From Eledone cirrhosa (Eukaryota), in the NCBI GenBank assembly GCA_964016885.1, contig OZ024742.1, positions 135,966,001 through 136,030,000 on the forward strand: DNA of 64,000 nucleotides. The letters are read 5' to 3'. The notes beneath the pieces were generated by a model. The model did no database searches, was not told the origin of the DNA, and was given only the letters and a program-made list of their open reading frames with translations. Each line of letters opens with the position of its first letter. The stretch's first letter is position 1. Positions 11,270 through 59,844 of the stretch are shown here, piece after piece. A program made the translations under genes and the position numbers.

Positions 11270-11714
11270 AGGAAAGAGATATTTATTTAATAATGTCTCA
11301 TATAAAATAATACAACCAGCTATCCACGAAATACTAATTAGTTAGCACCCCAAACACTAAATTGGGATAATACTTAAGTATATCCTAATGTTTGTTGAGT
11401 GAGATGGAGTTGGTCGGAGTATTGCTTAAGTATTTCTCTGTTTATGTATTGTAGATATATATATATATATATATATATATATATATATATATATATATAT
11501 ATATATATATATATATATATATGTGTGTGTGTGTGTGTGTGTAGATAAATCTACCAAAATATACGGTAGTGTCCAATCCGTATGAAGAACTCAATGTAAT
11601 ACAAATATCATGAAAAGAGAAGATGCATTCAAAAATTTTCAATGAAAATCACACGAAAACAGAGTCAAGATAAATTAATAAAAACAAAGAACAAGTTCCT
11701 TATATTAAAAAATT

Positions 11715-11848
11715 CATCATTTTACGATCGTTTCAAAGATATATATGTGTGTTGGTAAGTATATCATATAGATCTATGTAAAAATGTTACAAACTATCAG
11801 AGGAAATATGCATACCTTCACATATATATGCTGTCTTCAGAAATAATG
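11715..11848 (-). ncRNA. Type I hammerhead in the pLTR of Penelope element 1
   Basis: Minus strand: cattattt-CTGAAGA-[about 100-nt stem II with atatatatgtg/cacatatatat]-GAAA-cgatcg-TA-aaatgatg. Confidence 0.8.
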
Positions 11849-12564
11849 ATATTTGTTTATTGAAAAAAACCAACAAAGATTTAATATATTAGGTCTGTTT
11901 GGGAACAGGTTTTGAATTGACCAATAGAAAAGTAGTAAGATGTCAAGTTGATAGAATAGTAGTAGTAGAATTTAATTTAGGGGTAGAGGAATGCAGACTT
12001 AAGTTTTGAATGGAAAGAATGCTTTGAATGGAAAGAATACTTTGGGGATGAAAAGAGGTCAAGCCGGTGAAGATTACACGAAAATTTGATGATATTAAAG
12101 AATAATATTAATGTTAAAACCGCAGGAGAATAAAATTTTAGGGTAAATGTGTTAGTGAGAAATACCAATCTTATTTAAAACACAAGGAATTTAGATCTAT
12201 AACAAGAAATTAAATTAATTGAAAGGTATACTTATAGGGATAAATTTATATTAATTCATATGGATGTGATAAATAAGAATTAGATGTTATTAAAGAATGT
12301 TGTTAAAAACGAAGGAAAATAAGATTTAGGGATAAATGTAGTAGTGAGAAATACCAATCTTATATAGACTACAAGGAATCCAGATTCATAACAGGAAATT
12401 AAATTAATTTATATGTATACTTTAAGGTATTAATTTTAGGAAAAGAGAGTTGTAAGAGGGAAATAAAATTATGAAGTTCTCTGTAGTAAAGTACTAATTA
12501 TAGGTTAACTAAATTAAAAAAAAATAATTATAATAATATGTAAAATATAAGTGTAAGGTGTATA

Positions 12565-13026
12565 TTAATTAGGTTTATAATATTTGAAAGTTCTTCTAAT
12601 TCTATGATTGCAAGATATAATTAATTCTTGTCGCTTATTTAATAGGATATCCTTAGATTTCATAATTTCAAAAAGTTCCTGGGAGCATAATCTACACTCA
12701 TATCTGTTATTTTGATAAGGGGTGACCCTTTTGAGTACACTACAGCTCAGGTTATAATCGATATTCTTTTTTCTATAATTATTAATTGTTTCAGCCAAGG
12801 ATGTTGTATTAGCTAATGCGGCATTTTTAAAACTATGTTTGTGGGTATTAAATCTTACTTTAAATTGGTTAGACGGAGCTCCTATATATGAATAAATTGA
12901 GTCCTTAGTGCTAATTTTACATTTATATACTATGTTATTAATAAGACAATTTCCCTTTAATGGGCAATTTATTTTGTTTCTACAGTTACAACCATTCGTG
13001 AATATTATATCAGGGGAGTTAGTCAA
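12565..13026 (-). pseudogene. Penelope GIY-YIG endonuclease domain
   Basis: CNCRNKINCPLKGNCLINNIVYKC...YSYIG...FKVRFNTHKHSF...CRLCSQE...LLNKRQEL...CNH, the typical PLE zinc-binding plus GIY-YIG layout. Confidence 0.92.
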
Positions 13027-14424
13027 ATTTGGTGTGGAATTTACTCGACTTGTTATATGTGAAGGAGATGGTGGTTTGTTGCGGTTTATTTTAGTTTTAT
13101 GGTTGGTTTGATGTGTTGGTGGTATATTCGTGGTTTTCTTTTACATTTATATGCATTGTACGCACTTATATGTTGTTGTATATTTTTGGTAGTGGAGTAG
13201 GAAAATTTGACAGTTGATCTATTTAAAATTTGATGGTATTTATGGTTTGGCGGGAAGTTTTTCTCTAGGATAGTAAAAACATTTTTAGGGATATTATCTT
13301 TAATTTGTAGATTAAATGGAGCATTATACCAAGTAACTCGTCTATTACGGTTTCGATGTCGTTTTTTATATGTATACGATGTATCAGGATGTTTGCTAAG
13401 AGAGTTAGTATTAGTGAATTTATTATATATAGGTTTAGTTAGATTAACAGATTTAGGTGTTTTAGTCTGATTATTAGGAATTTTGTTAGTAATGTTATTA
13501 ACGTATATTGGAGTATTAGGATGAATGGTTTTTTGAAAGTTATTATATTTTATGTGAGTAGAGGTAGAGAAATTCATTTTTAGGTTGGTATTTTGGGGTG
13601 TAGTGTGAGTGGCATTTAGGTGTGTGATTTTCATTTGGTGTTTGTTGGTAATATTGGGTTGTATGTTTGAAGTATCATTGGTGCAAGGTATATAGACTAA
13701 TTTGTTTTTGTGGCCGCTTCTAGCTAAAGCTTCGTTATAAAAGGGCGCATTTTTATCGAATACATCCTGGTTAGATGAGAGGTTAGAAATTCTTAGTGAG
13801 ATATTATATGCTAGGTATTTAAGGATAGATCTAGGGTGATTGGATTGTGAGTAATGTAATGTAAGTTTTGGTTAGGTTTATGGTAAGGTTGGTAGATACC
13901 CGTAGATAAGTCTAAAGTTATATCTAGGAAATTAACTATTTTACTGGTGTTTTCAAATGTAATAGTGAGATTATAATAGTCTTTGAGGAAAGTTCTAATA
14001 AGTTTTTGTTTTTCAGTTTCTGATAGACTAAGGTTAGTGGAAAGAAGAAGACAGTCATCACGATATAAACCACCTTTAAGGTGGGGAAAAGAAGAATGTA
14101 TGTTAATAGAAGAAAGAGGCTCACAAGATCGGTAATTTGGGCAGAATCACTAGAGCCCATAGTAATGTCGAAAAGATTACTATATGTATTTCTGGTCCAG
14201 TATTCCTTCTGAAATTCCAGTAGTGTTTTTCTAGCGTGCGTGATAATATTAATATCATCCATAGTTAAGTTTGATCTATTTTTGGCAAATATCAAGGTTT
14301 TGTTCAGGAGTATGGGTGATATAGAGGGATAATAAGCATCTATATCAAATTGTAGAAATGAAGCAGATGATTTATTTCTAATATTAGTAAACCAGTTAAT
14401 TACTTGGGATGTGTTTTCCCAGAG

Positions 14425-14858
14425 TGGTTACTAATATTAGAAATAAATCATCTGCTTCATTTCTACAATTTGATATAGATGCTCATTATCCCTCTATATC
14501 ACCCATACTCCTGAACAAAACCTTAATATTTGCCAAAAATAGATCAAACTTAACTATGGATGATATTAATATTATCACGCACGCTAGACAAACACTACTG
14601 GAATTTCAGAAGGAATACTGGACCAGAAATACATAGAGTAATCTATTCGACATTACTATGGGCTCTAGTGATTCTGCCCAAATTACCGATCTTGTGGGCC
14701 TCTTTCTTCTATTTAACATAAATTCTTCTTTTCCCCACCTTAAAGGTGGTTTATATCGTGATGACTGTCTTCTTCTTTCCACTAACCTTAGCCTATCAGA
14801 AATTAAAAAAATTAAAAACTTATTAGAACTTTCATCAAAGACTATTATAGTCTCACTA
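14425..14858 (+). mobile_element. Inverted duplicate of Penelope 1 RT segment (fold-back arm)
   Basis: Near-identical reverse complement of 13963-14393 with about 30-nt spacer; encodes FDIDAHYPSI...MGSSDSAQ...GLYRDDCL. Confidence 0.92.
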
Positions 14859-57879: not shown

Positions 57880-58222
57880 CATCACCACCACCATTATCAC
57901 TGCTCACGACGACGACGACGACGACGACCACCACCACCACCACCACCACCACCACCACCATTATCACTGCTCACGACCATCACCACCACCACCACCACCA
58001 CCACCACCACCACCATTATCACTGCTCACGACCACCACCACCACCACCATCACCACCACCATTATCACTGCTCACGACCACCACCACCACCACCATTATC
58101 ACTGCTCACGACCATCACCACCACCACCACCACCACCACCCCCACCATCATTATCACTGCTCACGACCATCACCACCACCACCACCACCACCACCGCCAC
58201 CATTATCACTGCTCACGACCAT
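57880..58222. repeat. Compound repeat ccattatcactgctcacga-(CAC)n, 7 copies
   Basis: Visible repeat. Confidence 0.9.
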
Positions 58223-58761
58223 CTCAACCGACATATTTGATTGATACTTCTGTAGATTTGTTGATGTATGAGTTATAATCAGCTTTTTCTTCATCCCTGT
58301 GGTACGGAGATAACTACAGGGTCTTATGGGAAAGCTACGAATTGCTGAATAAGCTATATATGTATGTATGTATGTATGTATGTATGTATGTATGTATGTA
58401 TGTGTGTATGTGTGTGTGTGTGTGTGTATGTATGTATGTGTGTGTGTATGTATGTATGTGTGTATGTATGTGTGTATGTATGTATGCATGTATGTATCTT
58501 TGTATGTATATATATGCATCATACATATATATATATGCATACACATATATATATACATTTACACACACACATATATATATAAATATATATATACATACAT
58601 ATATATATATATATACATATTTATATATATACACACACACACACACACATACATATATATATATATACATATACGTATATATATATATATGTATATATAT
58701 ATATACATATACGACTGAATTATAACCATCAACATAGTCAAGGTATGTCAGGCATCAACTT

Positions 58762-58825
58762 ATTTTATCTGATGAGGACGTACTGTTGAAATAGCTCAGT
58801 ACCTCTGAAATATGTATAATAAAAT
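58762..58825 (+). ncRNA. Type I hammerhead ribozyme motif
   Basis: attttat-CTGATGA-gga(c)gtactg/cagtac(c)tct-GAAA-tatgta-TA-ataaaat, between TA-rich microsatellites. Confidence 0.8.
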
Positions 58826-58929
58826 ATATTTGATCACATGAATGTCTATATTTATTAATATTTTGAAGTAATATATATATATATATATATATATATATAT
58901 ATATATATATATATATATATATATATATA

Positions 58930-59108
58930 ACTGTTTCTACTTTAGGAACAAGGCCAGCAATAAACCAGTGCATTACTGGTACTTTATTTTATCGACCCCG
59001 TAAGGATGAAAGGCAAAGTCAACCTCGGCGGGATTTGAACTCAAATCGTAAAGGGACATAACTATGCTGGAAAGCATGGCGTCCGACCCTCCACCGATAC
59101 TGCCAATC
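58930..59108 (-). mobile_element. SINE family A copy
   Basis: Reverse complement of the 22513-22691 copy. Confidence 0.92.
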
Positions 59109-59844
59109 CACCGCCTATATATATATAACGATGGAAATGTGGTAAGGAACCAGGTGGACCATAACGCACCAAAGTACTCAATACTTAGGGTAGTAGAGTG
59201 GGTAATAGGAACGAGTAGGACACCGACGGCTGAGCTCAAGCTGTTTCGAATTAGCCGTCGAAACGGCTTGAGCTCAGCCGTTCCTATATATATATATATA
59301 TACTCGTTCCTATATATATATATATATATATATATATATATATATATATATATATATATTGCTACCGTAATTCTTGTCTTGGAGGACTTTGCACTCTCAG
59401 AAGTTATGCGCAGTGATTACCTTAACAGAATATAACCATAAGATGAAATTTAGAATAGAAACTAATTTCAGATTCGTATTCGTTATAGACGCTTTTGCAA
59501 TGTTCTGACAGATTAATACTGAAAATATAGTGGCCGGCGTAATTTGTAGGATACCGAAAAAAACTTAGGTATTATATTATTTTGAATGTAGTGAATGGTT
59601 GGATTTGTAGGATGCCGGAAAAAGTGGTTGGCATCTGAATTGTGAATGTGTCAGAATGTTGTACACACTGTTTTATTTCATTTTTGAGCATGTAGACGAT
59701 GTCCACATTCAAATAGTGCCAGACAAAATATCTTCTTATATTATAATGGTACGAGATTACCCGATTTGTAGAGTTCTGGATTAATGAAAATTTGATGTAT
59801 GCTATTATATAATCTTTAGAATGTCAGACGGATGGATTTTGTGT

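Follow-up and report, generated by a model that had tools for sequence, protein, structure and literature searches.

Examining 64,000 nucleotides (nt) of the Eledone cirrhosa genome (GenBank assembly GCA_964016885.1, contig OZ024742.1, forward-strand positions 135,966,001 to 136,030,000; hereafter the window), we found six inverted-repeat loci, L1 to L6, each made of two head-to-head arms, and in copies elsewhere in the 3.0-Gb host genome the two arms as a rule end at two different fixed 3' sites, the tail-less arm at an inner end and its partner, which carries a tail, at an outer one. The loci include Penelope-like elements (PLEs) and non-coding tandem repeats that PLEs likely mobilise. Most probably, a PLE reverse transcriptase (RT)-endonuclease cuts both strands of a (TA)n tract and one complementary DNA (cDNA) is primed from each cut end, giving arms that end at two fixed RNA sites. 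This reading is built on the layout itself, the pairing of inner with outer ends, the independent 5' reach of the arms, the variants mirrored between them and the positions of the hairpins, all of which can be observed directly. The families are named N (L1), P2 (L2), R535 (L3), R311 (L4), P5 (L5) and P6 (L6), and L numbers of three digits denote copies or loci sampled in the genome.

Head-to-head arms with two fixed 3' ends

An initial annotation of the window had placed inverted arms at six sites, and we found them at all six, at or a few bases from those positions. As it had proposed, the arms diverge from the junction, which proved true of all six loci once their sense was assigned from the reading frame (L1), the hammerhead ribozyme (L2, L4) or a tail hairpin (L3, L5, L6). 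Its statement that the 3' ends mostly run into (TA)n stands for 11 of the 12 outer ends, against a baseline in which (TA)3 lies within the next 20 nt at 907 of 12000 unbiased positions (7.6%), and fails for the right arm of L1, which halts at 14858 against a second PLE. That PLE had been missed, as had a short interspersed element (SINE) that splits the right arm of L2, where TA is reached only at 22784. The left arm of L1 crosses (CA)10 before TA, its outer 3' end at 11543 running into (CA)n/(TA)n.

The two ends of each insertion are strikingly constant. In R311, 14 of 18 loci are head-to-head and none is tail-to-tail, and each of the 14 inverted loci has one end at unit position ~125-140 and the other at 157-171 (three of these ends were read through a variant at position 119 and one through a variant at 158). 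Inversion is found in 15 of 20 long copies of N2, the coding family to which P6 belongs, and all 15 pair an end at 0 with an end near -79; the N2 query omitted the last 109 nt, and one paired locus has a small deletion before the inner end. Among 26 distinct R535 loci, 21 are inverted, comprising 17 with an inner and an outer end, two with two inner ends and two with an aberrant end (the duplicates L049, L063, L066 and L075 were left out, as were L080, L105 and L106, one-armed loci of P2). The family N query set one end at 0, and 12 of 29 loci have an inverted partner within 1.5-kb flanks; the partner ends at -127 to -131 in five of the eight that could be resolved and elsewhere in three, never at 0, and four run off the locus. 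The tail is one-sided in all families; at ~30-35 nt, that of R311 agrees with the 30-40 bp described for PLEs, while those of N2, P5, P2, R535 and N measure 77-127 nt. Overlaps or fill-ins at the joint range from -16 to +10 in R311 and from -14 to +4 in N2. Two R311 loci, L031 and L043, are single-orientation arrays with a near-whole number of units whose two ends both fall close to the TA-like site of the unit; they may be collapsed palindromes or represent a second insertion route.

Such palindromes, termed fold-backs in the initial annotation, could in principle arise when a single cDNA or self-primed antisense RNA folds back and the endonuclease later trims one arm, leaving the tail. Self-priming followed by endonuclease resolution has been proposed for PLEs (PMC3846280, PMC8557442; statements on cited papers refer throughout to the portions of their text available to us), short overlaps at many joints and mirrored variants fit it, and L1, L3 and L4 are compatible with either model. 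However, a single snapped-back cDNA cannot yield a tail-less arm that reaches further 5' than its partner, and this is what we see in L2 and L6, in three of nine simple N2 joints (L283, L284, L288) and, when four complex joints judged by eye are added (L278, L281, L282, L292), in 7 of 13; L286 and L287 were left out, their joints being too complex to rank. Likewise, the spacer lies on either side relative to the tail, at 13 and 11 P6 loci, the tail-less arm reaching further 5' in 11 of the 24, and at 16 and 10 P2 loci, plus one with both tails. Each arm thus holds sequence that the other lacks, and therefore neither can be a copy of the other. Since the tail arm is not always the one that extends furthest 5', dual priming is the simplest reading, and the two RT start sites seen in vitro (PMC11167929) also speak against a fold-back, which we consider unlikely.

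Sequence variants point to the same kind of event. Recurrent variants are mirrored in both arms in 19 of 23 cases in P6 and 79 of 91 in P2, compared with 1 of 12 and 4 of 64 for private variants, suggesting that every insertion event produces its mirror arm anew. Within each R311 locus, all units of the two arms agree in their alleles at unit sites 55, 119, 158 and 260, two private alleles included; this likely reflects copying of one circular monomer, with array homogenisation as the alternative. Two ideas about the joints were dropped. R311 arms do not convincingly start at the ribozyme cut site (they do so at +1 in the window), as only 8 of 14 loci fall in a 38-nt interval chosen post hoc, with a corrected p of about 0.2. 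Nor does hammerhead stem I program the L2 joint: the stem-like letters there are part of the left arm, and longer copies of P2 extend further upstream.

The architecture is not confined to the window. In an unbiased sample of 60 stretches of 10 kb at fixed coordinates on four large chromosomes (600 kb), 99 of 325 TA-bounded segments of 90-1500 nt contain an inverted repeat, and these comprise 51 palindromes that abut a TA tract directly on one side and are separated from the opposite tract by a 30-200 nt tail, eight symmetric ones and 40 that are neither. Hammerheads called in sampled palindromes point outward in 16 of 17 cases and inward in one.

The dense TA tracts of this genome (1643 per Mb), often with stacked insertions, together with the differences between the P5 arms, would suit palindromes formed after insertion, by two insertions in one TA tract, hairpin repair or gene conversion, or else DNA transposons resembling miniature inverted-repeat transposable elements (MITEs). 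Against this, the arms abut head-to-head without TA between them, are near-identical at each locus and pair unlike ends. Moreover, a control repeat behaves differently: among 88 pieces of the SINE family found in the L2 tail, taken from the same 600 kb, no inverted pair occurs. The only locus of 38 flagged as tail-to-tail, L282, owes this to an internal rearrangement. A MITE or DNA transposon was rejected, since the tails are one-sided, the centres variable and the ends asymmetric, unlike terminal inverted repeats, and P6 is contiguous with an RT-endonuclease gene. Formation after insertion or by such transposons is thus very improbable.

An artefact of long-read library preparation or assembly might explain the 100% identity of the L4 arms. 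Yet most loci carry changes in a single arm, end sites are specific to each family, and later insertions split single arms, as the SINE does in L2. In contigs of another public run, X1, we also found seven distinct R311 antisense-to-sense joints and none of the opposite sense among those listed, together with TA-joined loose R311 ends near unit positions 140 and 168. That the head-to-head palindromes are artefacts is unlikely, to the point of being scarcely credible.

Element families and the tail hairpin

Mapping the six loci to longer copies, we found that L6 is the last ~130 nt of N2, 40 copies of which join the end of an endonuclease and its untranslated region (UTR) to P6. Tandem N2 copies have uninterrupted frames of 819 and 807 amino acids (L290, L292), in which an RT is followed by a C-terminal GIY-YIG endonuclease within one open reading frame (ORF), and the fragments of family N in the window lie in the matching order. 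N2 carries DKT, RWR (one conservative change from RWK), CxCX5C and CxxC/CxH around E and N; its full unit is 3547 nt long and begins with the second of two hairpins described below, and its ends were flagged as TA in 17 of 18 scored. The family N endonuclease has at least 150 genome copies at 86-100% amino-acid identity, counting that in the window, with a longest open frame of 594 amino acids; alignment shows the CxCX5C linker and CxxC/CxH, CCHH being absent, and the window copy lacks the DKT/RWR region. By clade motif criteria, N and N2 are called Hydra-type PLEs rather than placed in the Hydra clade itself, the canonical hammerhead being missing: none was called in the N or N2 UTR, and the core is absent from all N2 copies inspected. 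The RT and GIY-YIG domains were read from motifs, as Pfam returned no PLE domain in the proteins; a protein search gave one relative only, and Rfam gave no hammerhead match, only hairpin or microsatellite noise below gathering scores. An assignment of N and N2 as Neptune-like and of element B, the PLE abutting L1, as Poseidon was rejected by motif criteria and alignment with a published supplement.

The other loci differ in kind. Longer copies of P2 run on upstream, and in L305, P2 follows a Hydra-type endonuclease at a distance of ~1 kb, this being the one locus where contiguity is complete, with overlapping support from L306 and L236; the family that ends in P2 carries a canonical hammerhead. 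P5 is an old family (~83% identity) whose relatives run upstream into longer sequence, with no coding link in hand. R535 is a non-coding unit of 535 nt (GC 0.359) with hammerhead core words but no stem I, longer than the 170-400 nt of retrozymes. R311, with a 311-nt unit (GC 0.354), a type I hammerhead in each unit and no ORF of 120 amino acids in the array, is by sequence criteria, which call for non-coding units of 170-400 nt with GC below 50%, a non-LTR retrozyme (LTR, long terminal repeat), and the only proper one among the six loci. Its unit also occurs, at least 95% identical, as one 340-nt contig each in runs X4 and X10 of two other organisms; the X10 contig closes on itself at a 310-nt period, compatible with a circle or a tandem array, and such wide sharing could mean horizontal spread.

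Thus, where the initial annotation saw several non-coding ribozyme RNAs, only L3 and L4 are non-coding tandems, and L2, L5 and L6 are 3' stumps of longer elements: L6 is an N2 end without a canonical hammerhead core, L2 lies behind an endonuclease, L5 continues upstream, and even L3 is without stem I. Since L2 and L6 are the 3' ends of coding families and L5 the stump of a longer element, they are not independent ribozyme RNAs.

Nor are the loci unrelated, as had been stated, since L1, L2, L3, L5 and L6 have a tail hairpin in common. Judged by eye, the tails of N, P2, P5, P6 and R535 start with an outer stem of four pairs, an inner stem and, between them on the 3' side, a bulge of two bases, following the pattern RCTC-stem-loop-stem-TN-GAGY a few bases 3' of the ends in Hydra-type families. 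With a definition set before the unbiased tails were scanned, though after more examples had been seen in flanks, the hairpin is found in 23 of the 51 sampled tails in sense and two in antisense, versus 0.55 expected by shuffling. Counted by family, it occurs in 10 of 26, namely in 10 of 18 with tails of at least 65 nt and in none of eight with shorter ones; no hairpin was found at the three element-B-type ends. Both stems show paired substitutions (A-T/G-C and T-A/C-G swaps). Short-tail palindrome families (L196, L203, L215, L219, L233, L235, L236; 33-60 nt), some with hammerheads, have no bulged hairpin and are candidates in which the signal and helper used by R311 might be traced.

In two families, a second hairpin lies just past the outer end. 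In N2 tandems, ends at 195 and 274 are followed by hairpins at 203 and 281, and in R535, ends at 92 and 207 by hairpins at 96 and 212, the latter with a relaxed first pair. The spacing of the hairpins matches the length of the tail, 78 versus 79 in N2 and 116 versus 115 in R535. Hydra elements of corals and sea cucumbers also show the hairpin on visual inspection. Of the six Hydra consensus sequences that supplement file S7 of PMC8557442 contains, Hydra-2_Amil and Hydra-2_Ajap each carry a clear copy and Hydra-1_Ajap carries two; a partial one is seen in Hydra-1_Amil and Hydra-1_Crog, and none in Hydra-1_Obim.

Coordinates and neighbouring elements

Table 1. Positions of the inverted loci and associated features in the window
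Feature	Position	Strand	Details
L1 inverted arms	13963-14858		spacer 14391-14427
L1 left arm, 5'-truncated Hydra-type PLE (family N)	11543-14427	-	from translations and alignment; RT remnant, CxCX5C linker, GIY-YIG-type endonuclease 12568-13140, ~1 kb 3' UTR
Bulged hairpin 1, family N tail	11589-11665	-	4 nt after the inner end (11670), the end used by partner arms
L1 right arm, RT fragment	14426-14858	+	cut off by element B
Element B, separate Neptune-like PLE	14859-19229	+	two pseudo-LTRs; hammerhead-like minimal motifs at 15025 and 19116; TA end
L2 inverted arms	22222-22507		spacer about 22337-22394
L2 left arm, inner end	22229-22394	-	includes the spacer as 5' extension; hammerhead 22266-22334 with core change
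L2 right arm	22395-22783	+	type I hammerhead 22395-22463; tail hairpin 22701-22725; outer end 22783
SINE inside L2 tail	22513-22692	+	14-bp target duplication; control family
L3 inverted arms	31481-32728		spacer 32107-32217
L3 left arm, outer end	31481-32222	-	1.4 units of the 535-bp non-coding tandem R535; hairpin 1 at 32104-32127 and 31569-31592, hairpin 2 at 31990-32010
L3 right arm, inner end	32218-32728	+	hammerhead core words at 32591, stem I absent
L4 inverted arms	43684-48597		spacer 45040-45090
L4 left arm	43684-45039	-	4.4 R311 units; ends at unit position 166
L4 right arm	45038-48588	+	11.4 R311 units; ends at unit position 131; first hammerhead 45311-45354
L5, old stump (P5)	48638-48828	+	inverted arms 48640-48731; tail with decayed hairpin 48760-48779
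L6, stump of coding family N2 (P6)	59128-59313	-	tail arm on minus strand, hairpin 59176-59199; inner-end arm short, on plus strand; inverted arms 59226-59281, extending to about 59205-59313 with internal TA replacement

Element B directly abuts the right arm of L1, and its likeness to Neptune1_Ap was judged by eye. An endonuclease motif after the RT was not found in element B or in L231 and is present in L045.

Other repeats also lie in the window. Small palindromes and one inverted SINE-like pair, absent from the initial annotation, lie at 29314-29351, 40195-40223 and 3717-4189. A short hammerhead-like element at 58713-58871 has P2-like stem I letters and a TA end, and no inverted partner of it was seen in the window. 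A relative of R535 (71%) at 43145-43526 stops at the inner end, and further family N pieces with both end types occupy 63099-63993. Beyond these, the window holds two broken copies resembling long interspersed elements (36170-39368 and 24194-26541), with a Pfam exonuclease/endonuclease/phosphatase domain at 38448-39368, and two minisatellite arrays, at 2-1963 (36-bp, 55 copies) and 52852-57534 (30-bp, 157 copies).

Proposed dual priming and its place among known systems

We propose that insertion would begin when a PLE RT-endonuclease cuts both strands of a (TA)n tract. Each hairpin would bind and position one RT, perhaps one per subunit of a putative dimer, and two sense-templated first-strand cDNAs would be made, one primed from each cut end. 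Tail length would then equal hairpin spacing through the placement of an RT at each hairpin, and the cDNAs would halt at variable or structured places and join via 0-10 nt overlaps or short fill-ins. The second hairpin lies past the outer end and is not copied; therefore, only tandem or circular RNAs could serve again as template, and short stumps such as L2, L5 and L6 would be dead ends. Non-coding tandems would be carried in trans, R535 via both hairpins and R311 via another two-site signal, R311 likely deriving from a single circular monomer moved by a different PLE family. R535 is the best candidate passenger of a Hydra-type enzyme. The model agrees with the in vitro behaviour of an anole PLE protein, a predicted dimer that cuts and extends both strands and begins synthesis at two RNA positions, one on either side of the tail (PMC11167929).

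Several observations weigh against this model. Copy loci were drawn from top-scoring matches, which favours young copies and, for P2, P5 and P6, also copies with the same joint, and two R535 loci have two inner ends. Only 3 of 72 variants are mirrored in P5, a test made uninformative by age (~17% divergence) that in any case lends no support. The strict hairpin motif is missing in 8 of the 18 long-tail families and, of 15 evaluable Hydra-like coding pieces, only 4 (from three families) have it close to the 3' end, many of the 15 stopping at the inner end or being cut by microsatellites. The second hairpin was seen in two families only, in R535 by relaxing the first pair. No hairpin and no helper were found for R311. 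Finally, the ends described here fall at TA-like RNA letters, whereas anole priming occurs at sites not homologous to the cut DNA (PMC11167929), and the TA overlap at the ends may only mirror the target.

The initial annotation had further inferred one mechanism and an autonomous-helper and parasite system, which would amount to a single PLE enzyme that moves all six elements, five of them independent non-coding ribozyme RNAs. The common layout and TA target, the tail hairpin in five of the six loci and possible cross-mobilisation among Hydra-type families would agree with it. However, the genome has at least three coding Hydra-type families and one Neptune-like family; L6 and L2 end coding families with their own endonucleases, which share about 40% identity from one family to another; no complete hammerhead is present in L3 or L6; and R311 has a tail of 30-35 nt without the hairpin, suggesting that there is likely more than one helper. 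A single enzyme is thus distinctly unlikely. In contrast, the proposals of PLE machinery, (TA)n targeting and head-to-head polarity are supported, and mobilisation of non-coding repeats in trans is likely, given the two-end signature in 14 of 14 R311 loci and both Hydra-type hairpins in R535.

Much of this layout is already known. The inverted copy, the one-sided tail, the (TA)n target, non-autonomous PLEs and the helper-parasite hypothesis have all been described (PMC3846280, PMC8557442, PMC7229834, bioRxiv 10.64898/2026.07.22.740005). N and N2 resemble the Hydra clade, which includes Hydra-1_Obim (PMC8557442), in having an RT with C-terminal GIY-YIG, DKT (in N2), CxCX5C, CxxC/CxH, (TA)n, an inverted 5'-truncated copy and a one-sided tail, and differ in an N2 unit of 3547 nt versus generally <3 kb, RWR instead of RWK (in N2), no canonical hammerhead, and tails of 77-127 nt versus the described 30-40 bp. 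The terms "hairpin" and "stem-loop" are absent from the available main text of that paper, although the twin hairpin is visible by eye in its supplement S7. Insertions of endonuclease-containing (EN+) PLEs likewise show head-to-head inverted repeats with a tail on one (Arkhipova et al. 2013, PMC3846280); that study prefers self-priming on an antisense template, whereas the lengths of the arms in our loci point to two cDNAs templated by sense RNA. In vitro, Poseidon PAc of Anolis (Frangieh et al. 2024, PMC11167929) is similar in its two tail-bounding RT starts, cutting and extension of both strands, AT-rich target and predicted dimer. However, PAc belongs to a different clade, its short tail lies in an AC-rich stem-loop, and in that work the two starts are not tied to the two arms of one insertion.

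R311 shares tandem type I hammerhead units and low GC with non-LTR retrozymes (Cervera and de la Pena 2020, PMC7229834; Li et al. 2026, bioRxiv 10.64898/2026.07.22.740005), whereas R535, at 535 nt and without a complete hammerhead, is longer. Both studies propose, from co-occurrence and pseudo-LTR homology, that PLEs mobilise retrozymes; head-to-head arrays with the PLE two-end signature do not appear in the consulted portions of either, and the word "inverted" is absent from that of PMC7229834. In the literature searched, which covers few subscription journals, we found no description of strict end pairing, of the arm-reach argument or of the twin hairpin.

More tentatively, at somewhat less than even chances, symmetric dual priming may be general to the Hydra clade, with a dimer sitting on two bulged hairpins and starting cDNA a few bases 5' of each. 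Such a rule would account for the tail and the inverted copy as well as for why pseudo-LTRs must be in tandem, and would define the signal that R535-like tandems hijack; the two-end footprint of retrozyme arrays would then be direct genomic evidence that PLEs move them.

Published work regards the origin of inverted copies and one-sided tails in PLEs as unsolved (PMC8557442, PMC11167929), and a mobilising enzyme for animal retrozymes has so far only been hypothesised (PMC7229834, bioRxiv 10.64898/2026.07.22.740005). In the Eledone genome, such footprints number in the thousands, near-intact N2 frames are present and a short RNA motif yields sharp predictions; at 51 tailed palindromes per 600 kb sampled, the genome is itself shaped by the process. 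With element kinds and layout already known, the value of these results is a specific, testable model of PLE integration, together with genomic evidence of retrozyme arrays as PLE products.

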